From assembly GCF_035594765.1 (NCBI RefSeq), contig NC_085842.1, positions 79,646,782 through 79,710,781 of the forward strand: a stretch of 64,000 nucleotides of DNA. The letters are read 5' to 3'. The notes under the pieces were generated by a model. It saw only the letters and a program-made list of their open reading frames with translations, did no database searches and was not told the DNA's origin. The DNA is from Anolis carolinensis (Eukaryota). The position numbers were made by a program, and so were the translations under genes. Shown here one piece after another: positions 2,902 to 46,080 of this stretch; position 1 is the stretch's first letter, and each line of letters opens with the position of its first letter.

Positions 2902-5900
2902 CTGGGAGTAAAAAAAAAGAAAGAAAGAAAGAAAATAATAAAAAGAAAGCTGATAGGTAGGATGCTGTGTTTACTGCTGAGTAGCAATGGTTAATTATTG
3001 AGATTATGCCAAAGAATCTTCTACAACCTTGTATTGGTCATTTCCAGAAGTTTGAGGGTTAAACCTACTGTCACCAAGCCTTGAAAGACCAGATATACCC
3101 ACAAATACCTGTAGTTATTATCTAAGAATCTTGGGGACATTTTGCATAATTTTAGACCACACTGGTTTTGAAATCATTTGGCATTTTGAATTCTCCCCTA
3201 TAAACCCTAGGGCAGGTCTGCACAACCTGTTGTCCTCCAGGTGTTTTGGACTTTACCTCCCAAAATTCCTGACCATTGGACAAACTGGCTAGGATTTCTA
3301 GGAGTTGAAGTCCCAAACACTTGGAGGGCAACAGGTTGTGAAGCTCTGCACTAGGGGATACAACTGGTCCTCTTAAACACTAATGGTAGAAATAGGGACA
3401 TATGGACATGCTAACTGCACTTTGCCTGTTCCGATTATCTAACCACAAGCAATTAAAACCAGCTTACAGTAAGATGGCTGACAGTGGTAATTTCACTGTG
3501 TTTTTAGTTTTATGGAGAACTATAGCCAGCAGATATCCTGGATCCATTCTTTAGGGCAGTGGTTTTCAACCTCAGGTCCTCCATGTGTTTTGGACTTCAA
3601 TTCTCAGAAATCCCAGCCAGTTTACCAGCTTTTAGGACTCATGGGAGGACCAAAGATTGAGAACCACTGCTTAAGAGTATTACACATTTAGTTCATCCCA
3701 GAGAAACTGATCGGTAGTAGCACTGCGGTTTCACATATTCTTTAACAGTGCCCTCAAAATGTAAATATGATAAACATAATCCATTTCCATATGAAACTGG
3801 GACACAAACATATCCATACCATTCCTCTATTTCTCCATGTGCCACCACTTCAGGAAGATATACAGTAATATTTGCTGAGGCAGGATACATCTACTTAGTA
3901 TTGGCTCCTGAACCAGACTGATACAAGGCAATTCAAACACATTTTTGTTCATTTTACTGTCTCAAAAAAGATCATTTTTAAAACTAATAAATCATTTGAT
4001 CTCTTTAACAACAAAATCTTCACAAAACAGCCAACTGATAAAAAAACCCAATTTATCCAAAGTCTTCAGAAGAACCAGTCTCCTTACCATATTAGAGCAT
4101 GCACTGGCGAAAGTCATAAATTTGGGGTTGAACTGCAAACAGGTTATAGGGCCTGTGTGTTTCCCATCCAACACAGCAACCTTCATTCCGGTCTCTCCAT
4201 TCCAGACATGGATCTTCCCATCCTCTGATCCTGTAGATCAGATTATGCAAAAAGAGTATAAACCACGGAAGACTTTTCATGAAGAAATCCATTTAAAAAT
4301 GCAGTGGCAGACACACCAATAAAACACAAAATCAACAAGTACCAAGGAAGGGGGGAGGGAGAGGAGAGAGGGAGAGAAGGGGGGGGAGAGAGGAAGAATT
4401 GCACTCTTACCAATCATTATAAATTGTGAATCAGGGGTGAAGGATGCCTCTAGTGTAACAGCTTTACTGTTGTTATATCCCTATAAAATAAAGTTTCATG
4501 AGAAATGTCAAACATACTTAAAGCAAAGGGACAAGGACAGGTTATGAAGTACTACTACTCGAGACTGTGTAGAGGACCTGTGTAGGGGCCCTGCAATTTC
4601 ATCCCCCTACCCCATGTGCCAGAGATTAAAAGTTTCTGAAAAATTACACACAAAAATGAAAGGAAAAGAAGAAAACCACAGAAACAAAGTGAAGAAAATC
4701 TGCAAAATATTTCGACTTTCCTAACAGTAGCTTCAATTCTTAATATATAAAAGCTAGTTTCTTCAACTAACCAAAACATACACTTCGTCCATAATTCAAA
4801 CCTACTAATTCTAATAACCTAAAATTATCATTTTTGTTTTCTATGCAAAATGGCAATCAAGGGTTCCTACTCTTTTTTAAATTTAACCAGCGATTATTCT
4901 CTGATCAAAATGGATAATTTGTTTATTTCAGCAAAACATTAGTTTTAACAGCCAGTCCTCTTTTCATGTTATTACTTTACTATTCCATTTTTGTGTAAAA
5001 AGCAATATTCCTACTTTGCTAGTAGTCACATATCATTATAATAACCTTTAATAAACTTCAGAAAAGCAAGGCAAGCTCACATTTTACATTAACAGAAAGG
5101 TTGTGAAATTCAAAATAGGAAAGCAACTTCTAACACAGTATGAATCTAACACAGTACGCATAACCCGTCTCATCCTTATCATGGGAGATGCTTAAGACAA
5201 AGAGCTTTTCACAAAGTAAAGAAAGAAGTCCTCACTGTAAATGTATGAAGAACAGCTCCTTTAAAGGCATCAACAAGCCGGATGAACCCGCCATTGGTCG
5301 CTATAAGAATAAGTTTACCATCATTGCTGAACTTCAATCCAGTCCATTCGCAGGTTCGGTCATATTGCATTTTGAAAGTAGTAAATGGACCCTTCAAGAA
5401 GAAAAGTAACAGAAACAGTCTAGTCTTTCTGCTTATGAACACTGGCATGAGGCTGAAAAAAATTACAGTTTGAATGTCTAACATTTTCCCAGGAGCCTGT
5501 TTAAGCCATGGAAACAGGATGTACACATGGAGATATTAGTGAACCAACTACTGCCTACAGCCTATTGGGATTTGTGCAAAAAATGCAAGACCAGGAGGGC
5601 CCTACGTGATCCTGTCAGGTGCTTTCATTTTCTTAAGCAAGAGGTGAAGCCCATAATCATTAAACAAAAATCAGCAATGTCTTAAGACATTCTGAGCACA
5701 ATGGTTTTGTGGGACACAGAAATTCTAATTGGGAAAAAGGCATTACATTTTTAAAATTCTGTTTGGGCAATCTATGTAGCTCAAAATTTGCCTAAACATT
5801 ACATACCTTATCAAAAGACCGAAGATCATAAAGTTTCACCATTTCAGAATTCACTCCAGCTGCAAAAATAAGCCCTTCTGGATCAAATGAGCACACAGGC

Positions 5901-8039
5901 TTTCCTTGAGGATGCATCAAACCCTGGAATTTGGAAACATGTTAGAAGAAGTTAGTCCAAAGTTTCTTCTGTGGCATTTTTAAACCACATTTTGATGGAA
6001 CCAATTACTACAAGTGTGATCTTTCCACCTTTGAAGCAGTGCTCTAGCACATCTAATGTGAGTCTCTAGATAGTTTACCTGGCAGTTTGGAGACCGGAGA
6101 TCCCAAAGTCGGATGGTCTTATCAAGTGACCCAGAAATAAACGTATCATCCACAGGAGACATAGACAGAGCAACAACTCTGCAGTGAAGAAATAAAAAAC
6201 AAAATGCCCCAAATAATTGAGCTGTATTTACTGTTTTGTTCTCACAAATTCAAAAGAACATGACATTTTAGGTAAAAAATAAAGATCTGACACTATATAT
6301 TGTAATGTAAGCTTGTCAATCAACACTTTGATTTATTCTTCCTATTTACACCCCAAGATAATAAATGGTATCTCACTCATTTTACCTCTTGCTGTGTCCT
6401 GGAAAGTATCTGATGTACTTATTGTCATGCAGAGAGAGATATCTGATTGTATCTGTAAATAAATATCAACAAAGCAAACATTATGCAGCAACCTTGTATC
6501 ACTTGGTTGTAGTGAGAACTTGCTTACTTGAATAAGACAGATTCTTTCTCTTCATATATTTATAATTGGGGTTACACACTAATATCTCCCAGTAATACTT
6601 TCACTTAGGTAAAGGTTTCCCCTGACATTAAGTCCAGTCGTGACTTTCACTTAACAAATTAATAATTTATCCAACACAAGCCATATTATCTTCATCAAAG
6701 TGTAGACTGGATCTGCCTTAACATGCACACAGAAAAGTTATAAACACTCCATTACCTTTCATTTGAAAAAAATACCAGAAAAAAAAACACTGTCAGCACT
6801 TGTAGATATAAATGCTCAGAGGAATCAAGATTAAACAGTAACTGTGTATCATTGCATTTCTTAACAAGAATATTCAGCAGACCTCTTTGTGTGATACAGA
6901 AGCTAAAAGGCAAATGCTTTGCAAAATTAGCTTTTCACTCTGTTCTGAATGAGAACATGTGATTTTCCAGATGCTACAGTGCAAGCTTCAGGAGCCAAAG
7001 CAGCATAAGTAAGAGACAGTTCACCAGTATCAGGAGGGTTTCAATTCTCTCTAAATCCTTTTTGATGGTATATTTATAAAGGTCATAGTATAAAAAGGCA
7101 AAAGTTGTCCCGTGAATTAAAATGTGCTCTTCTATAATGCAACTAGCTGTGCCCGGCCACGCGTTGCTGTGGCGAAGTCTGGTGGTATGGGAAATAAAGT
7201 ATTGAGGAATTGGTGGTAGTTAAGGTAAAGGGTAAAGGTTTTCCCCTGACATTAAGTCCAGTCGTGTCTGACTCTGGGGGTTGGTGCTCATCTCCATTTC
7301 TAAAGCCGAAGAGCCGGCGTTGTCCGTAGACTCCTCCAAGGTCATGTGGTCAGCATGACTGCATGGAGCGTCGTTACCTTCCCGCCGCAGAGGCACCTAT
7401 TCATCTACTCTCATTAGTATGTTTTCGAACTTCTGGGTTGGGAGAAGGTGGGGCTAATAGTGGGGGCTGTGTTCATCTGCGACCTTTGGGTGCAGAAGTT
7501 CAGCAGCTCAGCGGTTAAACACGCTGCGCCATCAGGGGATATTATTTTCTCAAGGTTGTGAATATACAATATTTCTGATTGTTTTTTGTCTGTTGGAGGG
7601 AAGTATGAATGTTGGAATTAAGGAAAATGATTAGCATGTAATGGGCTTGCAGCTTTAAAGCCTGGCTGTTTCCTCCCTGAGTGAATTTTTTGTTGGGAGG
7701 TGTTAGCTGGCCCTGATTGTTCCCTGTCTGGAATTCCCTTGTTTTGAGAGTGGTGTTGTTTGCGATATTTTATGTGCTTCTATTGTGTGTGGGTCTCAGA
7801 AAAGAGAGGATTTGCCAGACTTTTGATGATGGGAATACTTTGTTGGGAGGTGTTAGCTGGCCCTGATTGTTTCCTGTGTGGAATGGCCCTGTTTTCAGAT
7901 TGTTGTTCTTTATGTAGTGTTTTGATTTTAGAGATTGTATTGTTCTGTTTTATTATAGCAGAGTAATTTTTATATATTGATTTTATTGTTTTTGAATATT
8001 TGGAGCCAGATTGTATTCATTTTTACGGTTCACAGCAAC

Positions 8040-8072
<33 letters not shown>

Positions 8073-8310
8073 GTACTAATAATGAGTCTGGTAATACACA
8101 CTGCTTCACTGCATTGTGAGCTTCCTTTCTGGAAGAATCCTTTCTTGGGAGGTGTTAGCTGGCTGAGTTAGTTTGTTTTGTGGCATTCCCAATTTTCCTG
8201 ATTTCAGAGTGTTATAAAAATAATAAGTTACTATTATTAGTTATTATTATATTGTTGAATGATTATCAATGTTCTAATAATTATTATTCCATTTGTGAAT
8301 GATTATCACT

Positions 8311-8348
<38 letters not shown>

Positions 8349-11300
8349 TTATCATAATAATCAATGATAAGCTGACTTGCAGTATTAAAATTAAAAAGGG
8401 AATGTCGAAACAAACAGATTTTTGGAAAATATGGAGAAAATTTATTGAGTATATTTTTAATGAGGGAAAGGGGTATAAGCCAGCAACAGAGACAATGAAA
8501 TTTTGGACTTGTGAAACAGTATGAGTTGGTTGGTCCTGGTGAAGGTGGCACAAAATAAGGGGAAGGGAAGAGGGGGAAAAGGTATAACAATAATAACGAT
8601 AATAATAATAAAAAATAAAACATGTATAAGTAGATAAAAAGGTGTAGTAGAGATAGTAATAAAGTTGTAATGGAAAAGTCTAAAACTGAGAAGAAATATG
8701 CATAAAGATGTTTTGATTCTGATTTTTCTTTATTGTTGGATTGCATACAATGTGATATGTCTGGGATACTGTAAAATGAGGAAAGAATGTATACTTATAT
8801 ATTATTGAATTATAATATAAATTAATAATAATAATATTGAAAATAAAGCATGTATAGATAGATGAAGGGTGTGTAGTGGAGAGATGTATAGTGAAGTTGT
8901 AATGGAAAAGTTAAAAGACCGATGGGAAATATGCTTGGGGATGTCCTTGATTTTTGTTGTTGTTGTTGGATTGTATGCAACGTGATGTGTTTGAGATATT
9001 GTAGAATGAGGAAAATGTGAGCTTATACATTTGGATTGATAAATTAATAAAAAATATACATAAAAAAATAATTTACTCTTATTTTGAATTGTTAATACAT
9101 TGTTGGATGATTATCAGTGTTATAATAATAATTATTATGACAGCCTTGAATGTTTATTATAGTTGTAATAATAATAACTTGTTATGATTAGTTATTATTG
9201 CATTGTTGAATGATTATTACTGTTATAATAACAATAATAAATTACTATTATTATTGGTTACTATTACATTCTTAAATGATGACCAGTTATTATTATATTA
9301 ATAATAATTATTACTGACAGGGAAGGGAAAGGTGAAGGCGATAGGGCTTGAGAGGGAAAAAAGGGGGGCCGCTGAGGCATTGGAGGGGTTGTCATTTGTT
9401 GGTGAGAACAACAACAACCACAATAACAACAGAAAAGGGGGGGGGGCTCAGCCTGGGCCAACTTGGGCCTTCCCTCGAGTTGTTTTGGGCGCCAACTTCC
9501 ACCCTTCCTGGTCTGAGGCTGTTTACTTTTCCCCCGTCAGCCGTTTAACCGGGTGAAGGGGGAAAGGAAGGGGCTTGAGGCCGGGAAGGGCGGGGGTTGG
9601 CGCCCAAAACAACTGGAGGGGAGGTCCAGACCTGCTCGAGAGCCATGCCATCCTCTTTCTCCCTCACCTTGAAGTCCTCAGAGAAGAACCGGGGAAGAAG
9701 TCCTTGAGGCGGGCCAGGGTGCAGACGGCGCTGCGGAGGGCCCGGTAGGAGGAAGGCCGAGGCCGGGAGGAGGAGAGAGGGTGAGGCGGGGGTCCACGGG
9801 GCCTTCCTGGCGCTGAGGGGAGGGGAGAGGGGCGGGAGGAGGGGGCTGCTCGGCGACCCTCCATGGGCCCTGAGGGGGGAGGAGATTGAGGGGGAGAGGG
9901 CAGAGGAATCCACCTTCCTGCCTTCCTTCCTTCAGCCCAGGCCCAGCTCTGAGGTGAGGTGTTTGTGAGGCCTCCTGGGTGAGGATGATGTGTGTGTGTG
10001 CGCGTGCGCGGGAAGGGAGGAGAGGGTGGTGTGCGTGCAGGCGCAGATCGCCTGTTGCGGTTTTTGGGCTTTTGTTGGCCCTGTGATTGTGTTTGGCATC
10101 TAATTGTGCTGTATCTTACTGGAGCCGTGGATGATGGGTTATGTTGCCAAATTTCAAGGTTGGAGGGCCTTTACTTTTGTTGTTTTGTGCGTCGCCCTGA
10201 TGCCATTACTCTTTTATATATATAGATTATGCCCAAACTGGAGGGCTCCAGGTATGCTAGACAAAAACTCCCGCTATCTCGAGGTAGCACAACGAAGATG
10301 AGAGCTGAACCCATCTAGAGACTGCCAAATTGAGGAAATGAAGGGCTAGAGAGGTCAAAGAAACATCCTCTTATTCAAGTGGCTAATCAAGAAAGGCCAG
10401 ATTTGGACCAAATGTTTATAGACATTGCAGGTTTTTAATTTTATGAAAATAATCTGCAAGCTTCCCCAATGCAACCAAAAATTATTATTCAGTATGGTCA
10501 AACAGAGGGCTGTAGGCACAATCTGTTAAAGAGGCAACTTTCCACTAAACAAATCATAATAGACAGTTCAGTTCCAAAATCAGTTATATAAGACACAAAC
10601 AAGTCTCAGAAGAACTGCTGATTTCTTTAAGTAGCAAAAGTTAGTGATCACCAAACAAATGAAGATAGGAAGCTTCATTCAGTAGGTAAAGCTCTGCCCC
10701 AGGCAAGGCAGTGGCCTGTACAGTTATCTCCTGTACCGGGTGGTATCATAGACCCTCAAACTGTACAAACTACTACCTCAACCCGGAATCAGGCAATATG
10801 TGGGAGGACGACGTAGGCTTGAAAGTTGTAGAATCCTTCATCAAAGAAGACCTCAGTGAAGCTGGATTAAACAGTAACTAAGAAACCCTAAAATATAAAT
10901 TCATACACACCAGTCATGGCAAGTGTTCTGCAGGAAAAAGGAATAATGATTCATCTGTCTCCATTTCTTTCACAGATAACATGTTTACAATGTACATCCA
11001 TTTTTACTCTAGATGTTATACTACACTGTATCATGTATTTCTCCAGAGAATATAACAATTTGTTATTTATATGACAATTTTCAAAACAAGTATCTGACAT
11101 TTTTCATAAACATTTAACTTACTATGGCAAGGTTACTACAGGTTGAATACACCTTATCTAAAAATCTTGGGATGAGAAGTGCTTTTTTGAATTTTGAATA
11201 TCTTGTTTACGTATATGATTGACATATTCACAGGTTTCACATGTGTGGTTTTGATCATTCACAAGCTTGTACTGCTGCCCCTCCCCTCCCGAAGTTGGAG

Positions 11301-31879: not shown

Positions 31880-32534
31880 AGAAACAGAAGTTTTGGAACT
31901 TGCTGCACCTATGGACAGAGGTAGGTCATAGTAAGAAACCTGATGGAATAGAATCTGCGCAAGAACAATTCAGTCCTTTGTTGACATCTTTCTCCTATGC
32001 TTACACAATCCAGCCATTTTATCCCCAATTATGTTTTTCCTTTCAACCTTCTAGCAAATCACAGGGGCTGCTTATTTTGAAATCTTGGCCTGAGAGAAAA
32101 CTGGAATTTGGGGATACTTGGTGTCTCACAATCCAAAATTGGGATAATGTTCGTCTGCTTTTAAATGACTTAGGGTGTGGAGCAGTTTGACATACAGCGT
32201 GTTTCTGAAAATTATTTTGCATAACCTGAGATTTCTCATTTTGTCTAGCTCCTTAGTTGAAGGCAGGTGATTTCCAAGGCAGCTTCAGTCTGTAGATCAT
32301 TAACATCCTAATTTGATTCATCTGATCAGCTGGACAAGAAGACCTTTGGACTTTTCTAGGAGATCAGTGAGCATTGTTGGAGGCAGGTGAGAAAACTGGG
32401 TTTTCAGTAAAGCAAGCACAGTGGGATTGAAGAAAACCCGTATATCTCTCCATTTTACTCATTTATCCTGGCATTTAGTTCACAATACTTATTTTGCCCA
32501 CCCTTTGTCACAGGCTGCATGCAAAGACTGGCTA

Positions 32535-32923
32535 ATGACTCAGGCTGTGGTTTCACGCTTCAGGAATTTGCCTTTAGCTGGCACAGTCTGCTTGCGGTCC
32601 GCTTCTCACCCTACCAGTGGGACATCTCTCAATATGACGCTCAGGGAACATGGGCTGCATTTCTTCCGCAGTGCTATTGGAACTGTCCTCCCAGGACCCA
32701 TGTTGAAACGAGTGCTGGTGCTAGACACAAAAAGTGGTTGTCCCAGATTACTGGTGCGCGATCAGTCTTTTGAACTGAGGAGGAACCTGTATTTGGTTGG
32801 CTTTGGGAAGGCTGTACTGGGCATGGCAGCTGCAGCAGAGGACATCCTTGGGGACCACCTTGTTCGGGGAGTGATTAGTGTTCCACATGGCATCCAAGAA
32901 ACTATGCAGCACCGAGGAATGAG
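32535..32923 (+). CDS. GLYCTK: GLYCTK first coding exon (acceptor at 32513/32514)
   Basis: MTQAVVSRF...[25 protein letters not shown]...; AG|GTAAGG donor. Confidence 0.93.
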
Positions 32924-35900
32924 GTAAGGAAGCAATGGACCTTCTTACAGACAAAAATAGGCCCAGAGGTATTCTCCGGTGCCCCCCCCCATGAATCTCT
33001 TTTTCAATTTGATGTAGCCAAATTCTCATTTTCATCTTGTGTTGTGGAAGCCAGGCTTTTCCATTCAAAAGTGTCTGCACCACTGTTTTTAGTGATAATT
33101 GTGTAAGCAGTTGGAAGTAGTAAATGCAAATTACTAATTTTAAGTCTTTTGGAGATAAGTCCTTTTTTCATAATTTAGGTCAAGAATTATTCTAAGGGCA
33201 CATTTCTTATACAATCTACTGTGGAGTAACCTAACAACCTGCAAGCTTGTTTCAGTCTTTTTCTGGTTTAATAGGTAAGAGGTTCTGGACAGTTTGCAAT
33301 CTTGCTACATAGGGGTTCACAGAGTACAGAGGTCTGCCAGGGAACAGTGAGCTTTGATGGATCCAAAATAGCAGCATGATTTGGCTGAAGTGCTTAGAAA
33401 CCATGTCATCCTGCAGACAGAATGATTATGGGTTGTTTTATTTTAATTATGAGCACATGTCCTAAGTCTTGTGTGAATGATTTTGGCCTTGTCCAACAGG
33501 AAATGGGCCATGCTGTCATTCATAAGTGATACGATATTCATGTGGTCCCTCATTGTGTCTGATCACCCCCAGTAATTGGATCATATTTCTTCTCATTAAG
33601 CAGTTAGAAGGGATCCAAATTACAAGTTGTTGTCCTGCGAATCTTCATATGTAGATGCATTTGGTGGTAGGGTCAGCATAGTTGAGAAAGTAACTTGTTC
33701 TTTTTTTATTGTGTAGAGAGATGTTGCTGAAGCCCCAGAGCCACATTCTAGTTATGGAAGGAGCTAAGCACAATCTTCCTGACAGAGATGCTTTGAAGGC
33801 AGCGAGTGCCATCCGGGATTTGGCCGAGAGCCTAACCACAGAGGACCTTCTCCTGGTGCTGATCTCAGGTGATTACATGATGGAAAAACTCACTTTCCCC
33901 AAATAATCTGCTTTCTTTCATGCACATTGTCCCAGTCTTCTGTTCTCTTTTCTGGTCTTAGTTATTCTTTGCTTCCATATAGAAGAAGCCACTGCTTTAA
34001 AATGCCTCATAACACAAGCTCAGTCAGTTTGTTGGCTGCAAAGATAGCAGAACGGACGTGTGAAGAGGTTCAGAATATTTTTCATTTTTAAGGCAGCTTC
34101 ACAAGATATTGAATCATAGAATAATAGAATTGGAAGAGACCACATGGGCCATCTAGTCCAACTCTCTGTTATGCACCATAAAAGTATCCCATCCAGCCTC
34201 TGTCTGAATACCTTCAAAAAAGGTGTTTCCACCATATGTACATATGCTAATGGTTTTGCTGCTTGTTTTATATGTCTCTATAGCCCTGTATGTCTCCTGT
34301 TGTCTGCCTATGGAGACCTGCCCTTGCAAACCCTTAGTAAATTGTGATATCTGCTGGAATGAGAGGAACAATAATGTGGAATACGAATATCTTTGTATCC
34401 AATTGTTGAATAAACTTGGTGAAAGAAGCATTACCATATTAGGAAGTCATTTTCTCTGAGTCAGACTTTCCTCCCTCCTACTTTGCTTTTTCTCGTAGTC
34501 ACTAGTCTTAGATCTGTGAATCTTACTTTGTAATCAAGCTAAATATCTATTATTCTGCTGCAGTGTTTGTAGTTTCACAAAGCACTCTGCTTGCTTTTGT
34601 TTCTCTGACCACTTGCGAGACTTTTGAAACAGCAAGGCATGCTTTCTCCAGAGGATGGCAGTCCTGAATCAGAAAACAGAAATGTCATGCTATTCCAAAT
34701 GCTCGGGAAGGTGTAGGATATGGAATTGTGAAGAGCATAATTTTAGAAATTTTTCTGCAGTTTGCTCTGAATAGGTGGAAGGGAATTGAAATGGGTGTTC
34801 ACTATAGTTTTGTTTGTGGCATATGAATAATGAAATTCTTTGGTCAAGTAACATTGAAGCAGAATGCCTGTGGCTTTTTAAAAATTTCATATATTTTCAT
34901 ATGCCCATAATGTCACTGGTGCCATAGGCAGACCAGAGCTGTATTGCCTCAAAATACTTGAAACAAATCTGGTATATGGTATAAAAATGAGTAGGAAAGA
35001 GTTTTGACAGGGACAAAGGAAAGTAGAGCAAGAGGCCATGTACTTCGGACTGCATTTCGGCCTAATTGGCACATGGCTATGACACATGGTACCACTGAGT
35101 CATATATTTTAAATATTGATGTCTGTCACAGTGTATGGGGACCTTTCATGCATTTAAAAAAAATGCTAGATGCTTTCACACGTTCTCTTCCCATTCCATT
35201 TTTGTTATTTTTATAACTGTTCACAGTGAAACACACTTTCTGTGCCATAAACTTTTTCAGCTCAGTCGCAAAAAGAAGTTGGAGATCTGGGAGCCAACTG
35301 CCAACAACTAAGACTATCTGTTTTATTTTGTTTTGTTTTTTGTTGTTGTTGTTTTTGGATGTATGGAGGCTCAACCAGAGCAATTCAATCAAAACCTGGA
35401 CAGGGAGCACAGAAAAAGTGATAGCTGGAGAAGTACATGGATCTATATCATGGGTAGAATGTTTGTGTGTGTGCACCTGTACCTCAGTGTTGCTATAGTT
35501 AACTTGAAGACAGATTATTGCTGTATATTATAATTATTAGATTTGTTGCTGTCATAATCTTTGTTTATACCCAAAACTAGGACTCAAGGCCTCCTACAAA
35601 TTACAATGAATACTGTACAGTTTTAAAATGAAATTCAAAACACCACAACACTAAAACTGAATTTAACCATTAACAACACCAATAATAATTTAAAACATAT
35701 AACTTAGGTGTTAAAAAAGCAGTCTAAAAACAAATTAGCACATTTTAAAAGCTCTATTTTTTAAAAAACCTGTATTTCCCAAAATTATGGTTGATATAAA
35801 TTGTTCTCTTAAGTCAACTTCAAGGAGTCCAAATACTCTTCCTAAAGAAGGGAGCTTTCTGCCACTTTATCCAGGTTCTTTCTTGAGGCCCTTGGCTACT

Positions 35901-38493
35901 TTTGTTGTTGTTGTGTGCCTTCACATTGTTTACAGCTTATAGTGACCCTAAGGTGGACATGTCATGAGACTTTCTTGGTGAGATTTGTTCAGAGGAGGTT
36001 TACTTTTGTCTCCATCTGAGACTAAGAGAATGTGACTTGCCCCAAGTCCTCCAGTGGGTTTCACTGGCCAAGCGAGGATTCAAGCTCAGTTTTCCAGAGA
36101 CTCAGGACTTTATTGCACAGGGCTAGCAAACCAACATTGCAACTGGACACCTTTGCTGGTGATCAATATTGCACAGCACCATGCATCTTGCTGCTGATAT
36201 GCCTCCTTCCCGTTACTTTCTTGTCTCTCACTATTGATGGGTAGAACCCAATCCCAGCCTCATCAGTTGCCCTGGTCCCTCAACATTTCTGTCGGTTCAA
36301 TGGGTTCCTTCTGCTTCTTTGCTAGCATGATGGCAGTAAAGTGGTGTCAGGGAGCAAGATTCTCCCTCTTTCTTCTCCTACTCACTATTCCAAAGCTATG
36401 TTTTCTATTTATTTTATATTTTATAGTTATATTTGCCTGATTTTGTTTGTTTTTCAAAGCTGGGATTGCCAAATTGTTTGGAAGTTGAAATAAAAATGCT
36501 AAGGAAGAGCAGTAGTGCAGGAAGGCAGGTTTGTGGATATACAATTGGGGGGGCCACTATTGTCAGATGAAAGAGAGGTGCTATATTGAAGGTCCTTATC
36601 ACAATATGTGTCCAGTCACAATGGGAGCACAACTGCAATGGGACAGTGAGTTTGTGTAATGAAGTCTCTAGTCCAATGGTAAAACCACTAGACCATGCTG
36701 GCTCTCACCTTTGGCTATATTTATCTTGAAAAGTTTTCTAACCCCTAGGAGGATGCCATTCCCTGTTCTCCTATTCCAGGCCAGTTTAAGGACTCCATTA
36801 CGAGACAATTCCTTACTTGACTATTGTTCTCACTTGGCTGCACTCCTAGTGATTGATGAAATGTTGCACCTATTTCATTGTTTTTCTGGTTTGTTGCCTT
36901 TTGCAGATTCAGTGTCTCAAAGCTCAGAGCATTTATCATTTAATGGTTGCTTTTGAGCTGACCCTGGAGCAGAGTTGACCTCTAATCTTTTCACAAACTC
37001 TCTTGATCATTTCTCTCTGCGGTCATCTGGTTAGTTGTGATCACACATCCATTGCTCAAGCTGCAAATATGTCTGGTGCTTGAGCTATTTTTCTTTCCCT
37101 CATTTATCCTCTCTTTCTCATCCATCTGTGGCACTTGTCATAAGCTTTTAGTTGCACTTCATTTCATTTCTGCATTTTGCTTCAAATGGTATTTGCTTTC
37201 TTTTAAGAGTTGCTTATTACGAATAAGGCCAATAAAACAGAGAGAAGTCCAAAATCTTTGTGTGTGCTCTTCTCCTGTCTCTTTTTCCAAAGCTTCCCCA
37301 ACCTGGTGCCATCTAGATTTGTTGGATGACTATCATAGAATTGAAGAATTTGAAGTAATCCCAAAGGCCATCACATCCAACCCCATGCCATGTTGGAACA
37401 CACATTCAAAGCACTCCAGATTCTGCTTTAAAAACCCATCTCCAAAATTTAGCTATTCTTTTCTGGGACTTCCTCCTGCAACAGGACATTCTTTCCTTCC
37501 AATTTGTTTTGCATGATATCTAGGGTATACAGTATTTCATTGCCTTGCTCCCATTTCCCCCAAATGCATGTACTTTGCTCATATGACTGGAGACAGTGGT
37601 TCAGTAGGCATAACCATATTTGCAACCCCCAAGTAAACAATAATTTAGATTTGTAAAATCATTTTCCAAACAACACTATCATTGCTGTAAATTTTAAATT
37701 TCTTACCAATATCCTTTTATCTAAAGCTTCTTTTTGTTCACTTACCAAGATCACCCCTGCCCCTTTGTTCTTCGTTGCTGGGCTTTTTTGATCCCTGACT
37801 TCTGTCAGCTCTCCCTTTGTTATACCAAGATTAGCATCTCTTATTTTCTTCTTCCATTAATTTCCAACTTCTATGCCTATGCCTACTCCTTCTCCCCCAG
37901 AGCAATAATTTCATTTCTTATTCATTTTCTCTTCTTTTTCTTCCATTCTCTTTCTCTACACTCACATTTCTCCTTGGATCAGATATCTGTAATCATGATT
38001 TGTTGTGGATAGCCCTCTATCTTTTGGACTATATGTTTTTCAATCTCCTTTCCCACCTCATAGTACAAAGCAGATTGTCTGATATTCTACTTTTTATCTA
38101 CATTCTTTCAGTACACTTTAAAAAGCAAGATCTGCTCAGTCCCTTTCTAGATTAGTTGTTTATGCTTTTGGGCTGTGTTTTAACAGGCTCAGAGTTGTAC
38201 TGAGATACTGTGAGTCAGTGTATTTGAGAGAGGAAAAGCCTAATTGATTCAGAGTGAGTCTGCATGTGACTTTCTCATTCAAGGGCTTAGTGTGAAAAAG
38301 TTTCCAGTTGTCATTCTAGTAATTCATATATGGAAATAAAAATAATAGAATTGAATCTGCTTTCTTTGTCAGGGAAACAGAGAAATATTAGCTTTAACCG
38401 TCTCTCTTTGGTGTTTCTTTTGTATAATTGACACTAGTGGTTGAGTTGTGAGAAGGAATCATGCCCTGTAAAAATGTATGTTGTGGCAGTGAC

Positions 38494-38543
<50 letters not shown>

Positions 38544-41500
38544 ACTTTATTTGTACCCCGCTAGCATCTCCCGAAGGACTCGATGCGGCTTACAAAGGCC
38601 AAGGCCTCAACACACAATATAACAATACAAAACAAAAAGCAAATTAAAAACAATTAAAACAGTATAAATAACAAGCAATAACAATATGCTATTAAGATAC
38701 GCTATTAATACGCTCATTAAGATGAAACAATCTCAAAATCAGATGCATCTGAGAAAGTAGACAAATTACCTCATCAGACGGGCCATTGGAATCACCACAC
38801 ATTATGTTGAATCCAGTGGTGCCCAGCTTAGTGTGTGGGGAACCCGTCGCCCCATGCCCCGCAACACCCGACTCACTTGTTGCCCCATTCCATGGGGGAA
38901 GTGTTTGCTGCCCGGCTTCCCCCCATTGATGGCAGTTGAACTTGGGAGTCCTCCTGTGTTGGCATAGCAGTGGCATGTACTGCCTCCTCTACAGTTTTAC
39001 AACTGAGTCCTGCCGGAAGTAGTTCATAATTGTGGGATGGGAGCCAGCAGGCTCTGTCATAAAACTGTAGAGCAGTGGTTCTCAACCTGGGGCCCCTAGA
39101 TGTTTTTGGTCTACAACTCCCAGAAATCCCAGCCAGTTTACTAGCTGTTAGGGTTTCTGGGAGTCGAAGGCCAAAAATATCTGGAGATCCCGGGTTGAGA
39201 ACCACTACTGTAGAGGAAGCAGCACATGTCACCGAAAGTCATACCATCTGATGAGGTCATTAGTTTATTGAAGATCATGCTACCACTTTCATTCTCTCAA
39301 TCTCTAAAGTGCTACAAGAACCCTTTGCATAATGATATTCCAGCCTAACATGTCTATATCATTGGACAATGTCACAGAACTATGAGACATTTTGTGCAAG
39401 TTTTCAAATTAAAATTTTATAATCACACAGAGACAGCTGTTAAAATGGGGAGAAAGTGACAATGTTAGTCACACAGTTTACATTTTTTTCTTGAGATGGT
39501 ATGGAGGATGGGTCTGGGCAGACTATCCAGTTAGACTCATCAGGACCCCACAGCCTCTTGTCCTGAGCTCACCAGGAGGAACAAAGGGGTTTTAAAATGA
39601 TAATACAGTGTGGTTCTCTGTGTGAAAATAAGAAAAATCACTTTGAAAACTCAAATCTCTCTCTACCCAGGCTCCTTTGTAGGAAGAGAGCAGTGAGTTC
39701 TTCAATATGCTTTTATATTGTCAGGGCTGTTGGCAGTCTCTCATTCATAAGGTTGTCACAAGTCCAAGTCAACTTGATGGCATTTAACAGTAAGAGACAA
39801 ATTTAAGTGATGGGTCAAACAAATCACATTGATAGGAGCAAAACTGGTAAGCCTTAATTTTGACTGGAAGGAACAATTCCTTAGAAAATCAAGTCCCAGT
39901 TTAAGATTATATGGATTTCTTTTCCTTCAGTGTAAAGTCCCCCTGCTGAGTGGTACATTTGTTCTCCATTTCCCCTATATGCTTTTCTGACATCTTTGCT
40001 TTGTGTGTTTCAATGGAGCGCACAGAGACTCTGGTGCTGTTCTTGTTAGCCTCAAAAAGTTCTTTGGATTTTTTCCCCCTTACAGTCAACATTATTATCC
40101 TTGTAGCTGCAAATACACACTTGCTATTTTATGTTCTCTGGTGTTTTAGGAGGTGGGTCTGCACTTTTACCTGCACCTATCCCTCCAGTCACTCTTGAAG
40201 AGAAGGCTACCATCACCAGGCTGTTGGCTTCAAAAGGAGCAACCATTCAAGAGCTCAATACTCTTCGAAAGACTCTTTCCTTGTTGAAAGGTGGAGGACT
40301 GGCCCGGTCTGCCTATCCTGCCCAGGTGAGGCTATGTTTTTCCAGTCCTTTTGTGAAAGTTTTAATAGATGAAGTGGAAAATATGTTGTGATGCAAGAAG
40401 GGAGGGACAGATCTAATCATTCTCAATGTCTGTGAAGGCAAACCTGGTTGATATGTTTGAGAGAGGCATAAGACACCTGGTCTTTTGGTTAATTGAAACA
40501 ACACAAGATATTGTAAGCTAGTAGATCAAAAAACGGCTAATTGGGTTCCAAGTTTCATAGAATCATAGAATAGTAGAGTTGGAAGAGACCTCAAGGGCCA
40601 TCTAGTCCAACCCCCCGCTAAGAAGCAGGAAATCGCATTCAAAGCACCCCCGACAGATGGCCATCCAGCCTCTGCTTAAAAGCCTCCAAAGAAGGAGCCT
40701 CCACCACGGCCCGGGGGAGAGAGTTCCACTGCCGAACAGCCCTCACAGTGAGGAAGTTCTTCCTGATGTTCAGGTGGAATCTCCTTTCCTGTAGTTTGAA
40801 GCCATTGTTCCGTGTCCTAGTCTGCAGGGCAGCAGAAAATAAGCTTGCTCCCTCCTCCCTATGACTTCCCCTCACATATTTGTACATGGCTATCATGTCT
40901 CCTCTCAGCCTTCTCTTCTGCAGGCTAAACATGCCCAGCTCTTTAAGCCTCTCCTCATAGGGCTTGTTCTCCAGACCCTTAATCATTTTAGTTGCCCTCC
41001 TCTGGACGCTTTCCAGCTTGTCAGCATCTCCCTTCATCTGCGGTGCCCAAAACTGGACACAGTATTCCAGGTGTGGTCTGACCAAGGCAGAATAGAGGGG
41101 GAGCATGACTTCCCTGGATCTAGACGTTATTCCCCTATTGATGCAGGCCAAAATCCCATTGGCTTTTTTAGCTGCCGCATCACATTGTAGGCTCATGTTT
41201 AACTTGTTGTCCACGAGGACTCCAAGATCTTTTTCGCACACACTGCTGTCAAGCCAGGCGTCCCCCATTCTGTATCTTTGATTTCCATTTTTTCTGCCGA
41301 AGTGAAGTATCTTGCATTTGTCCCTGTTGAACTTCATTTTGTTAGTTTCGGCCCATCTCTCTAGTCTGTCAAGATCGTTTTGAATTCTGCTCCTGTCTTC
41401 TGGAGTGTTAGCTATCCCTCCGAGTTTGGTGTCATCTGCAAACTTGATGATCGTGCCTTCTAACCTTCGTCTAAGTCGTTAATAAAGATGTTGAACAGAA

Positions 41501-44500
41501 CCGGGCCCAGGACGGAGCCCTGCGGCACTCCACTTGTCACTTCTTTCCATGATGAAGACGACGCATTGGTGAGCACCCTTTGGGTTCGTTCGCTTAGCCA
41601 ATTACAGATCCACCTAACCGTAGTTTTGTCTAGCCCACATTTTACTAGTTTGTTTGCCAGAAGGTCGTGGGGGACTTTGTCGAAGGCCTTACTGAAATCT
41701 AGATATGCTACATCCACGGCATTCCCTGTATCGACCCAACTCGTAACTCTATCGAAAAAAGAGATCAGATTAGTCTGGCATGACTTGTTTTTGGTAAATC
41801 CGTGTTGACTATTAGCAATGACCGCATTTGTTTCTAAGTGTTTGCAGACCACTTCCTTAATGATCTTTTCCAGAATCTTGCCTGGTATTGATGTGAGGCT
41901 GACCGGACGGTAATTGTTTGGGTCGTTCTTTTTTCCCTTCTTGAAGATAGGGACCACATTCGCCCTCCTCCAATCTGCTGGGACTTCTCCTGTTCTCCAA
42001 GAACTCTCGAAGATGATTGCCAGTGGTTCTGAAATAACTTCCGCTAGTTCCTTCAATACTCTTGGATGTAGCTGATCTGGCCCTGGGGACTTGAATTCGT
42101 TTAGAGTGGCCAGGTGTTCCTGGACAACTTGTTTCCCTATTTGGGGTTGGATTTCCCCCAATCCTTCGTCCATTCCATGTTGCTGGGGTTGAAGATGGCT
42201 TTCTTTTTGTGAGAAGACCGAGGCAAAGAAGGCATTAAGCAGTTCTGCCTTTTCCCTATCCCCTGTCACCATCACCCCATCTACTCCTTGCAGTGGCCCT
42301 ATCGCCTCCTTTTTCCTCCTTTTTCTACCAACATAAGCAAAAAAACCTTTTTTGTTGTTTTTTATGTCCCTGGCAAGCCTGAGCTCATTTTGCGCTTTAG
42401 CCTTGCGAACCTTTTCCCTACAGGAGTTGGCTATACGTTTGAATTCTTCTTTGGTGATTTCTCCCCTTTTCCACTTCTTGTGCATGTCACTTTTGAGCTT
42501 TAGCTCAGTTAGAAGTTCTTTGGACATCCATTCTGGCTTCTTTGCACTTGTCTTATTTTTCTTCTTTGTTGGCACTGTTTGCATTTGCGCCTTGAGTATT
42601 TCACTTTTGAAAAACTCCCATCCATCCTTAACTCCCTTGTTTTTTAATATCGGCGTCCATGGAATGCCGCTCAGTAATTCCTTCATTTTTTGGAAGTCAG
42701 CTCTCTTAAAGTCCAGAATGCGTGTTTGACTTGTCTTAGTTTCAGCATTCCTTTGTATTGCAAACTGCAGGAGCACATGGTCACTTGCCCCTAAGGATCC
42801 AACCACTTCAACTGTATTGATCAGGTCTTCCACATTTGTTAAGATTAGATCAAGAGTTGCTGATCCCCTTGTTGCCTCTTCTACCTTCTGGACCATAAAA
42901 TTATCTGCAAGGCAAGTGAGGAATTTGTTGGACTTTGTACTCTTGGCTGAGTTTGTTTTCCAGCAGATATCGGGATAATTGAAATCGCCCATGACTACTA
43001 TATCTCTTATAGGTTTGATTCCAGCTCTTCTAGGATAGCATACATAAAGATGGGCCCCTTCATGCCTTCCATATTCCTGCCAGAATCACAAAGGGTACTT
43101 CCCCTATCATGCTTCAGTTTTCTAACAGGATTACTCAGGGAGAGGAAAAGGATTTCAGTTCTCCTTACCAGTCATCCCATTTAGCAAAATCTGTTCCCTG
43201 TCAGTGGAGGACATTGCTGGTAAGGGTCAGGTTTTATGTCTCTCTGCCCGTGAGTCTATGCAGATATAAAAGATAGGGAGAAAAGGTTTGTTTCTATCCT
43301 TGGGGTATGAATGTGTCCTGTTTTGTGAGTGAAAGAATCTGACTTACTTATGCAGGAGCCAGCCCCAGTGGTGGTTCCTCAAAAGGTTCTCTGGTGACAT
43401 TGTGGAACTCCATCCTAACAATATTATGATTTAAAGGCCTTTGAGTAATGGAAGAAGGTGACTGATTCTTACCTGAACAATATTTAGCACTGCAGAGGTA
43501 CTTCATACCTCCAGATTGCACAGAGGGCAATGTATATGGTGTGAGAGACTAGAGGCCAACAAAAATATTATTCCGAGAGGAAATTGTTGTAAAGTGTAGC
43601 TGTCTTTGTTAGCAGCTGGATGATAGCATGAAGTGGGGAAATGGTAGGTCAAGGCTGGATCTACACTGTCTTATATCCCAGGATCTGATCCCAGATTATC
43701 TGCTTTGAGTCTACTCTGCCAGATAATCTGGGGTAAAATATAATTTGAGATTAAATCCTGGATATAGAACAGTGTAGTTCCAGCCTTAATGAGGAAGTCA
43801 TGGAAGGCATTGAGTGTGCCCTTGTGGGAGGTCTGTAATAGCCTCCAACTTGAGTCTGTAAGCCTGCGTTATGTCCCTGCATCTACCTAACTCTACCATT
43901 CTATCTAACTCAGGCATTTCTGTTTGAAAAATGAATAGCAATAGAATCCAATCTCTTAGCTGAACAGAATGCTTTTAGGAAGGGAGGTGAAATTATGTGC
44001 TGAAAAATCCCAAAGCATGCAATCAAAAATCCTGTTTTGTTCAACTATAATGGATTATGCAAATTGAGCTAACAATATAGATAATTACCCAATTTATGTT
44101 TTATACACAAGTAGTATATAATTGGTAAGGGAATTTAGAAATCGTTTTAAAGAAGTTTTTCTGTTGTTTTTCATATATTTGACTATAACATTAGCACATA
44201 TTTTAGATTTTTGAAATCCCTGTAAATGGGACAAAGAAGAATGAGTTATTTCTCAGATGTGCAGAAGGCAGGATTGGCTTCTGTGAGAAGGCTGGAAAGG
44301 ATTGAAGATGGATCCCCTCTTTTATTTGGCAAAGAGTTGTGGGGTTTGCTACAGACATAAAATATTTAAAGTCACAGTTACATTATTCACCTCCCTTTTT
44401 GTAGCCAGCATGAAGGGGGAAATGAATGTGAATGACATAGCTATGCCATTGAATATGAGATGAACCTGTCTTAGAATGTGACTGAATATCCTTTCACAGA

Positions 44501-46080
44501 CCTAGAATTGTTCACCATCCTTTTGCTCTAAATAAGTTTTCAGATTCAATTGTCAATTGGTCATCTCCCTGTCTTTTACATCATTATCCTAAATAATGTA
44601 ATTAACCCAGCAAGAGACCTTGTTAAAACTTGATATCTTTGCTTAGATTTTCCTTTATTAGTGAATCAATGGCTTAATTAAATATGGAAATAATAGACAT
44701 TACCCTGTAGTATGCTTATCCTTGTTTTTAAGCAATGTGTACATTCTGGGGTAGGCATCCCCAGGAGAAGTATTCCTTTTACCAAGAGAAAATGATAAAC
44801 ACATTATTAAACAAGGAAGATGGTGCCTTTGTTCTGCAGATTTAAAATATGCTTATATAGCTGCTGAGCTGTGCAACCCTAAGCAGAAGTGTGTTTTCTG
44901 GGATGGAGCCTGAACAGGGTTCAGCAGGGCTTTCTTGACAGCAAGTTTGATGAGGATCCCAGCCTCTTTGATTGAATGCTGAACTTTATTGAAACCTCTT
45001 CTGTCTGTCATGGAAACATTCTCTGTGGTGTTCAACCTTGCAATCACTCAAGTGATGAGGATGCACAAATAAATTTGTCCTTGGTTGCAATTAAAGCCCC
45101 AATTTAGAGCAGGCACAGCTGAATATCAGGCAAGCTTTTGTGCAGCATGAACTACATTTACCTGCCGCCTTCTTTGTTTCTAGGTGTTGAGCCTCATCCT
45201 CTCTGATGTCATTGGGGATCCGTTGGACATCATAGCAAGTGGACCTACAGTTGCCAGTTCTCACAGCAGACAGGATTGTTTCCAGATCCTGGCCAAATAT
45301 GATATGCTGAATGACCTGCCAAAGTCTGTTCAGACCGTTTTGTCTCAGTCCATTACAGAGCGTGATATGCCCCAAGAGTTTCTCCATGTCTGCAACATTG
45401 TCATTGGTTCTAACAGATTAGCTTTGGAGGAGGCCAAATGCCAGGCAGAGAGTCTGGGTTATCTGTCTGTGCTTCTGAGTGATGCTGTGTGTGGGGAGGT
45501 CAGCACAGTTGCCCAGCTTTACAGTCTGTTGATTCAGTTTGTTTGCTTGAGCATTGCCAGGAATGACTCCATGAAAAACAAGGTGAGGGGAGCTCTCTCA
45601 AACCTGGCAGGAGAGCTGGCAATCCCAGGATTGGATCTTATTGATGTCTTCAAAACCTTGGAAGAAACCCAGGGAAATATGCCCATTTGTCTCCTGGCTG
45701 GTGGAGAAACCACTGTGCAGCTTCAAGGAAAGGGAAAGGGTGGGAGGAACCAAGAACTGGCTCTGCGAGTGGCCTTGGAGCTGCACCAAGCTCAGTCCAT
45801 GGCAGCAGAATACTTTCTTGAGAGATGTGAAGTTGCCTTCCTGAGTGGGGGAACTGATGGACAAGATGGACCCACAAAGGCAGCTGGGGCCTTTTGTAGC
45901 CAAGCACTGGTGAAAGAAGCTGAGCAGCAAGGTTTGGTGGTTGAAGATTTTTTGAGCAACAATGATTCGTACACATTCTTCTCCCAATTCCAGGGAGGAC
46001 ATCACCTCTTGATGACAGGCTTGACAGGCACAAATGTCATGGACATTCACACTATTTTAATCAGAGCCAAAGGACTTTAG
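32535..46080 (+). CDS. GLYCTK: Glycerate kinase (class II / MOFRL family); join of 32535-32923, 33717-33868, 40150-40325, 45184-46080; 537 aa
   Basis: 389+152+176+897 = 1614 nt in phase; motifs LVGFGKA, LISGGGSAL, KGGGLA, LSDVIGD, IASGPT, GGETTV, GGRNQE, GTDGQDG, TGTNVMD. Confidence 0.96.
33717..33868 (+). CDS. GLYCTK: GLYCTK coding exon 2
   Basis: [29 protein letters not shown]...LLVLIS; canonical sites. Confidence 0.96.
34110..34232 (-). mobile_element. CR1 3' tail fragment
   Basis: GAATCATAGAAT...GGAAGAGACC...GGCCATCTAGTCCAAC. Confidence 0.7.
38497..38542. repeat. (TTA)n microsatellite, tail of a minus-strand retroelement fragment
   Basis: About 15 TTA units followed by a LINE-type 3' tail sequence. 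Confidence 0.85.
39073..39207. mobile_element. hAT MITE, 135 bp
   Basis: TIR CAGTGGTTCTCAACC...GGTTGAGAACCACTA; perfect 8-bp TSD CTGTAGAG. Confidence 0.88.
40150..40325 (+). CDS. GLYCTK: GLYCTK coding exon 3
   Basis: [18 protein letters not shown]...[13 protein letters not shown]; CAG|GTGAG donor. Confidence 0.96.
40556..43007 (-). mobile_element. Young 5'-truncated CR1 LINE (~2.45 kb ORF2: end of EN + RT) in the last GLYCTK intron
   Basis: 510-aa and 232-aa ORFs ([42 protein letters not shown]) separated by a single -1 frameshift near 41463; (ATTCTATG)n tail. Confidence 0.97.
43653..43785. mobile_element. PIF/Harbinger-like MITE
   Basis: TIR GGCTGGATCTACACTG...CAGTGTAGTTCCAGCC; related to 59631-59758. 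Confidence 0.65.
45184..46080 (+). CDS. GLYCTK: GLYCTK last coding exon
   Basis: [23 protein letters not shown]...[18 protein letters not shown]. Confidence 0.97.
   Translation: MLSLILSDVIGDPLDIIASGPTVASSHSRQDCFQILAKYDMLNDLPKSVQTVLSQSITERDMPQEFLHVCNIVIGSNRLALEEAKCQAESLGYLSVLLSDAVCGEVSTVAQLYSLLIQFVCLSIARNDSMKNKVRGALSNLAGELAIPGLDLIDVFKTLEETQGNMPICLLAGGETTVQLQGKGKGGRNQELALRVALELHQAQSMAAEYFLERCEVAFLSGGTDGQDGPTKAAGAFCSQALVKEAEQQGLVVEDFLSNNDSYTFFSQFQGGHHLLMTGLTGTNVMDIHTILIRAKGL

Follow-up and report, generated by a model that had tools for sequence, protein, structure and literature searches.

Helitrons of bats have been described as preferentially capturing promoters, 5' UTRs, first exons and first introns of host genes, and one bat copy carrying NUBPL sequence introduced a cryptic site and a premature stop into an SGSM3 transcript (PMC4224331). 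The element HelibatN3 was reported to trap exons in cells by means of the donor that it captured, and end bypass of Helitrons was described in the same work (PMC4778049). For Xenopus laevis, 19 captured fragments were reported for Heli1Xen1, 17 of them from 5' gene ends (PMC12001565). Helitrons have also been described in Anolis, i.e., HeligloriaB (PMC2997563) and elements under the Helitron-1_Acar naming (PMC3248570), and anole Helitron insertions were found at low frequency and rarely fixed (PMC7561263).

The window analyzed here is a stretch of 64,000 nt from Anolis carolinensis, for which an initial annotation proposed that a transposon had delivered a complete TESK1 exon, in sense orientation and with a polypyrimidine tract and a strong donor, into an intron of WDR82, where as a poison exon it could adjust WDR82 dosage and make let-7g output independent of WDR82 protein output. 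We take the nine-exon host gene to be WDR82, from its protein sequence and from that annotation. The features within the gene and the inserted element are as follows.

21010-20850, minus strand: coding part of WDR82 exon 1.
12827-12730, minus strand: WDR82 exon 2, 98 nt, with a phase-1 end and donor ATG/GTAAGT.
7143..10226, minus strand: non-autonomous Helitron of 3,084 bp within WDR82 intron 2, sense orientation.
10212..10226, minus strand: Helitron 5' end, TCTATATATATAAAA, 15 nt identical to the starts of three autonomous elements.
9870..9959, minus strand: captured TESK1 5' part with a C-rich tract and a cryptic AG; about 58 nt are deleted in the subfamily.
9668..9869, minus strand: candidate pseudo-exon of 202 nt, the larger part of TESK1 exon 1, altered by deletions and frameshifts.
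9662..9667, minus strand: donor GTGAGG, descended from the native TESK1 exon 1 donor AAG/GTGAGC.
9060..9667, minus strand: start of captured TESK1 intron 1, with a 71-nt inverted repeat and an AT-rich minisatellite.
8348..9045, minus strand: AT-rich stretch of about 700 bp with repeats of about 230 bp, absent from the other 29 closest copies.
7223..7537, minus strand: SINE-like repeat nested in the 3' half of the Helitron, matching dispersed repeats elsewhere.
7143..7173, minus strand: Helitron 3' end, a subterminal hairpin followed by CTAG, its 31 nt all matching those of three autonomous elements.
6452-6386, minus strand: WDR82 exon 3, 67 nt, with a TGA at 6427-6425 that would be the stop upon inclusion of the 202-nt segment.
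6178-6079, minus strand: WDR82 exon 4, followed by five more exons.

The end of a let-7-type hairpin, presumably let-7g, lies about 830 nt upstream of the 202-nt segment. The location of let-7g within a WDR82 intron has been reported (PMC3384580). On the plus strand, divergent from WDR82, a gene at 32391-46080 encodes MOFRL and DUF4147 domains in its last exon, and a long reverse-transcriptase element occupies 40639-43085 within one of its introns. That gene is presumably the glycerate kinase gene GLYCTK.

The inserted element is a non-autonomous Helitron. Its 5' end opens with TC, and most copies start alike; its 3' end forms a hairpin (-5.5 kcal/mol) followed by CTAG at 7143, which fits the CTRR terminus of Helitrons; and the insertion lies between A (10227) and T (7142), with no target duplication. 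The same boundaries recur at 20 longer loci, where the 5' end was located in 19 and was preceded by A in 18, and where the first 3' end was located in 17, each reading CTAG/T. The 5' ends located in 77 copies followed A in 73 cases and T in 2, the remaining 2 being head-to-tail tandems. The 31-nt 3' end has 13,359 exact copies in the genome, compared to 0 for the control sequence. Assignment to a cut-and-paste transposon or a Penelope element was rejected: there are no terminal inverted repeats and no target duplication, and the ends match RepHel elements. Joints that skip from 7142 to 10227, as expected of an empty site, were not present among the 15 of 162 contig joints listed.

Further stretches of the element stand apart from its ends and its TESK1 piece. 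The SINE-like repeat at 7223..7537 is presumably a Sauria SINE. No source for 8348-9045 was seen among the fetched loci, with one partial match at 82%. The stretch 10063-9960, situated between the Helitron 5' end and the TESK1 piece and bearing CpG and CA repeats, likewise had no source among the fetched loci and no match in the 60 kb TESK1 locus; it is possibly an earlier capture from another gene.

Candidate partners that could mobilize the element were found by a Pfam search of the genome, which returned 26 Helitron_like_N matches. Three of six such loci examined have open frames of 1,381-1,511 aa, and these three autonomous elements share the 5' 15 nt and the 3' 31 nt with the window Helitron; a fourth locus has a broken frame and similar ends, and the remaining two showed no ends within the stretch. 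Both of the open frames that were scanned (two of the three) contain Helitron_like_N and PIF1. The three elements, 7.2-7.7 kb in length, share 97-99% identity across most of their sequence, carry the ends common to about 13,000 genomic 3' termini, and are candidates for a still-active vertebrate Helitron. Each holds an open RepHel frame:

C1:182085730-182093385, autonomous Helitron.
C4:43633886-43641131, autonomous Helitron.
C6:44427443-44434686, autonomous Helitron.

At C3:79264000-79283999 a broken autonomous Helitron is followed, head to tail (CTAG/TC), by a TESK1-carrying copy and further units. This array fits 3'-end bypass, and the head-to-tail tandems seen in this genome fit the end bypass described in PMC4778049.

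The TESK1-carrying copies form a family. In a DNA search, 40 of 240 candidates were scored, and all 40 (including the window copy itself) were near full-length, the others being 88-95% identical. A 16-nt pattern spanning the donor gave 170 exact genome matches (control 0); 100 of the 170 loci were fetched, of which 98 were copies and 2 were unrelated, and the family thus numbers about 170 copies. The window copy differs by 2.5% from its nearest relative. One TESK1-carrying subfamily is, judging from sequence divergence, very young, because 45 of the 95 sequences with a long enough alignment have a neighbor within 0.5%. The most numerous subfamily among the 100 fetched loci has a shorter segment, of about 150-160 nt, and a small duplication before the donor; many of its fetched copies have another within 0.5%, which points to very recent amplification.

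The source gene was traced with a pattern for the undeleted end of the exon, which matched the genome 8 times: six older Helitron-like copies, one TESK2-like locus (presumably TESK2, judging from its N-terminus) and a single intact exon, on contig C22. The best protein matches of the C22 exon were the annotated TESK1 of Anolis sagrei and those of other reptiles and birds, and A. sagrei TESK1 aligned to the C22 locus over its full length in ten blocks. The proposed TESK1 origin is upheld by this single intact TESK1 locus among the 8 matches and by the protein matches, as is, together with the Helitron ends, the earlier description of a transposon-delivered, TESK1-derived, sense-oriented segment. 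TESK2 was rejected as the source, the TESK piece of the element having no blastn match to the TESK2 locus. The element aligns to the source at 94% over 9959-9925 and at 74% over 9885-9087, with 14.9% divergence between the window copy and the TESK1 source; the captured DNA extends from TESK1 5' sequence through exon 1 into the first 600 nt or so of intron 1, where it takes in an AT-rich minisatellite that is also present in the native intron. Because intron 1 sequence is present in the element, capture was from genomic DNA, and origin as a retrocopy is ruled out. The inverted repeat within the captured intron (9464-9534 / 9558-9628; 71 nt, 79% complementary) lies 40 nt beyond the donor. Elements like it are also present at the native TESK1 locus, so that a small MITE-like repeat may have been taken up along with the intron. 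Same-family Helitrons lie at C22:397754-395624 and C22:431710-430914, both in TESK1 orientation, one within TESK1 intron 1 and one 11 kb upstream of the gene; they may be linked to the capture event.

Capture of the first exon together with its native donor raises the reading that the element acts as an alternative first exon, with transcription starting internally and the TESK1 donor spliced to WDR82 exon 3, as documented for NUBPL-carrying Helitrons (PMC4778049); the captured ATG opens a 74-codon frame that would end at a stop in exon 3. Against this, judged from the sequence, the GC-box promoter of the host gene was not captured. In the source, the capture starts 137 nt before the AG. Five GC boxes are found within 400 nt upstream of that AG, at 145-387 nt, all outside the captured piece, which begins just past the nearest of them; the corresponding upstream stretch of the element contains none. 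CpG observed/expected has fallen from 0.95 in the source to 0.45 in the element, and the contigs listed over the donor in two sequencing runs (X4 and X12, see below) appear to run through it unspliced. We give hardly any credence to internal initiation.

The 202-nt segment does look like an exon, and this look is real, but inherited from the captured gene. It is bounded by AG and GT in the sense orientation inside WDR82 intron 2. On the minus strand, the acceptor-like site reads CCCCCCTCAG/GGCCCATG, with AG at 9871-9870 and the segment starting at 9869; the donor, AAG/GTGAGG, ends the segment at 9668, with GT at 9667-9666. The positions first given for the acceptor (9870/9869) and donor (9668/9667), the length of 202 nt and the phase-1 end of exon 2 were all confirmed. 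Splice sites were scored with a simple home-made rule, by which the donor (6 of 9 consensus matches) scores like WDR82's own donors. The donor is credible, since it is TESK1's own exon 1 donor and its intronic hexamer is identical to that of WDR82's exon 6 donor, ACA/GTGAGG. The same home-made rule yielded 11 acceptor-donor pairs across both strands of the 64 kb; the segment accounts for 3 of them, and WDR82 has no other intronic pairs in sense orientation. Alternative CAG acceptors would start the exon at 9812 (145 nt) or 9806 (139 nt), with the frame outcome unchanged.

The acceptor is of another kind, and a strong acceptor was not confirmed. Its tract is C-rich, with 91% pyrimidine and a T fraction of 0.23, versus 0.41-0.73 in all 8 true WDR82 acceptors. 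In the TESK1 source, the frame is open upstream through this tract from an earlier ATG (MRGG...SPPSPHPSAAMEG), the AG lies within exon 1, and GC boxes are found directly upstream; the A. sagrei TESK1 protein (P0001) is annotated with a matching N-terminal extension. On these grounds the tract is likely C-rich first-exon sequence, with an accidental CAG following Pro/Ser-type exonic sequence, and the acceptor is likely a poor U2AF site. Nor is the segment a complete exon: its AG falls inside TESK1 exon 1, with the frame open upstream of it. In the element family the tract is 13 nt longer than in the source, and a G follows the AG. As for entry into the TESK1 reading frame, the entry frame at the start (captured ATG at 9864) is as claimed, a one-in-three coincidence, but the copy leaves the TESK1 frame soon after MEG, regains it, and loses it again at a 16-nt deletion, the second loss coming 16 nt short of the kinase start. 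A PDB sequence search with the segment translation returned chance matches only.

Both sites belong to the family at large. AG and GT were present in all 30 of the closest loci (the window copy included). Among 97 script-classed copies that had been chosen by donor only, 87 kept the acceptor and the ATG, the length of the segment falling in frame 0 in 38 of these copies, in frame 1 in 22 and in frame 2 in 27. Because the acceptor is present in 87 of 97 other copies, it is not a WDR82 adaptation; by comparison of the copies, the splice-like sites at WDR82 represent the family's ancestral state.

The consequence of inclusion is as had been proposed, and the earlier arithmetic was correct. Exon 2, the 202-nt segment and exon 3 joined by script give a 162-residue product with a premature stop in WDR82 exon 3, at nt 26-28 of that exon. 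The TGA is 39 nt ahead of the exon 3/4 junction and 139 nt ahead of the exon 4/5 junction, with five further junctions downstream, and thus lies more than 50-55 nt before a downstream junction, as in a poison cassette exon. A stop well upstream of later junctions is expected to trigger NMD; with the next two junctions at these distances, NMD would be expected of the included form.

We compared contigs over 5750-10600 from three presumed-RNA runs and one probable DNA run; none of the runs was recorded as RNA, and their RNA status is a guess. Repeats dominated the resulting tables. The inclusion joint 9668-6452, which the initial annotation had named as a check, was absent among the 15 of 162 joints listed for the four runs; this part of the check is weak, as contigs drop rare forms and NMD hides included ones. 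In X4, a 926-nt contig at a depth of 35 holds WDR82 exon 5. One such contig predicts bin depths over exons 3-5 of 22.9, 2.38, 21.6, 2.6 and 11.9, and those seen were 24.4, 2.38, 21.8, 4.61 and 12.1. Had the contig included the segment, the segment bin would have needed 28.5; the total seen was 16.9, and this contig therefore cannot include it. Its length equals exons 2-6 plus 388 nt, and its start would then fall 227 nt before the ATG, at a YY1-like motif. Inferred from lengths and depths, the contig fits normal exon 2-3 splicing. The X4 depth at 9691 (15.4) equals that of two contigs, both of which cover 9658 with a non-window letter; these appear to pass the donor unspliced and to come from other copies or alleles. 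Together these contigs support skipping of the segment as the main form.

Contigs running from the flank into a Helitron end extend 26 nt (X4) and 20 nt (X16) into the element, below the 31-nt bridging rule, and are hints of the insertion in the runs of two studies. The window-private letters at 9370 and 9400 were missing from X16 contigs, which we did not read as absence of the insertion, since variants within repeats are merged in contigs. Bin 9638-9799 was without cover in X5, as were WDR82 exons 3-5 in X12, and these blanks were not used as evidence. One X5 contig is continuous from WDR82 exon 3 into intron 2.

One alternative is leaky or tissue-limited inclusion: the C-rich tract would be recognized in some cells, e.g., through PCBP1/2, a measurable share of WDR82 transcripts would include the segment and undergo degradation, and the insertion would act as a mild loss-of-dosage allele with no regulatory role. 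The authentic donor, the 91% pyrimidine tract and the segment's standing as the source of the only intronic sense pairs in WDR82 under our home-made rule speak for it. PCBPs have been reported to promote cassette exons with C-rich tracts (PMC4797308), there is the bat precedent (PMC4224331), and contigs cannot reveal rare or NMD-cleared forms. On the other side, no inclusion junction occurred among the 15 of 162 joints listed, the X4 arithmetic fits normal splicing only, and there is no sense-depletion signal across 97 copies. For the latter, T/A plus G/C skew in the 8 kb upstream of each copy served as a proxy for the direction of host transcription. The mean flank skew was -0.003, with 55 copies positive and 42 negative; under an alternative flank definition, with one copy beside an autonomous element and two unrelated matches dropped, it was +0.005 +/- 0.007 (58 positive, 39 negative). 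Eight sense segments of three known genes, used as a control, averaged +0.087 (range -0.003 to 0.247), and a skew of about -0.035 would be expected on the assumption that about 40% of copies are genic and all of these antisense. The flank skew of the 97 copies thus gives no sign of strong purging of sense copies, and is compatible with a modest bias, the proxy being indirect. We regard leaky inclusion as unlikely.

The regulated poison exon of the initial annotation, which as an exapted device would tune WDR82 dosage and uncouple let-7g from WDR82 protein, requires still more. The included form would be an NMD substrate, and there are the hints of the insertion in runs of two studies. In a comparison with 10 close relatives, no private change of the WDR82 copy falls in the 202-nt segment, against 18 in 1,787 nt elsewhere in the element; this leans toward that view, yet falls short of significance (Poisson p 0.13, Fisher p 0.25). 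The insertion is young (2.5% from the nearest copy), its sites are the family's ancestral state, inclusion was not seen among the joints listed, and anole Helitron insertions are reported to be infrequent and rarely fixed (PMC7561263). An exapted regulator of this kind is extremely improbable. Use of the exon, and a role in WDR82 dosage, are unsupported, the sites being family-wide and the acceptor not being a TESK1 splice site; as a regulatory model the poison-exon claim is unproven and probably wrong. That let-7g output could be uncoupled from WDR82 protein output is a speculative idea that is logically possible. In a broader version, the still-mobile Helitron would spread a cassette of C-rich acceptor and authentic TESK1 donor to about 170 sites, with PCBP-dependent inclusion of sense intronic copies; the copy at WDR82 would be a poison-exon allele that segregates, reducing WDR82 protein and leaving let-7g output intact. 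This seems to us very unlikely.

We consider it probable that the 202-nt segment is an inherited, near-silent pseudo-exon within a multi-copy Helitron and is mostly skipped, with leaky inclusion at most. The authentic donor, the 91% pyrimidine tract and the 0 private changes in 202 nt count against this reading. One ancestral Helitron would have taken up TESK1 genomic DNA, from the edge of the GC boxes to a point some 600 nt inside intron 1, either through read-through at the 3' end or through template switching; later deletions would have produced the subfamilies, and RepHel from autonomous elements would have spread the non-autonomous copies in trans. Skipping is proposed because the acceptor is weak: the spliceosome would mostly pass over the segment and join WDR82 exon 2 straight to exon 3. 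A rare included transcript would run into the exon 3 stop and probably be degraded by NMD, so that the insertion would be close to neutral and not regulatory.

A literature consisting mostly of open papers, searched by titles and the beginnings of abstracts, yielded no reptile Helitron with gene capture and no TESK1 Helitron; the family may already be catalogued. For a poison exon in WDR82, one preprint, on chromatin factors, was listed. As far as that literature goes, a gene-capturing lizard Helitron extends 5'-end capture from bats and Xenopus to a reptile. With young copies and autonomous elements that retain open RepHel frames, the lizard offers a vertebrate system in which capture and spread may still be ongoing, and about 170 near-identical cassettes in varied introns and orientations would provide a natural test of when pseudo-exons are used. 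The WDR82 poison-exon idea would matter only if inclusion were demonstrated.

Regulatory poison cassette exons, such as those of SR-protein genes, are conserved, demonstrably included and regulated. The WDR82 segment resembles them in that inclusion would shift the frame and trigger NMD; it differs in being known from its sequence as a candidate only. Like the lizard family studied here, Anolis Helitrons generally are abundant and recently active, and gene capture does not figure in the available parts of the published Anolis accounts (PMC2997563, PMC3248570, PMC7561263), whereas the present family carries TESK1. A close likeness is to HelibatN3 and related gene-capturing Helitrons of vesper bats, described as carrying the NUBPL promoter, 5' UTR, exon 1 and part of intron 1 (PMC4224331, PMC4778049): both are non-autonomous Helitrons holding the 5' end of a single host gene with exon 1, its native donor and the start of intron 1, in many copies. 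HelibatN3 has the NUBPL promoter and about 1,000 copies, whereas the lizard element carries TESK1 without its GC-box promoter in about 170. The lizard genome still contains open-frame autonomous partners. Transcript use was seen in the bat; for the lizard copy it is hypothetical. Heli1Xen1 is likewise a young vertebrate Helitron family with captured coding fragments, mostly of 5' gene ends (PMC12001565). Its reported 64 insertions are divided among 19 fragments, with 17 copies for armc5, whereas the lizard family has multiplied one fragment to about 170 copies in several subfamilies.
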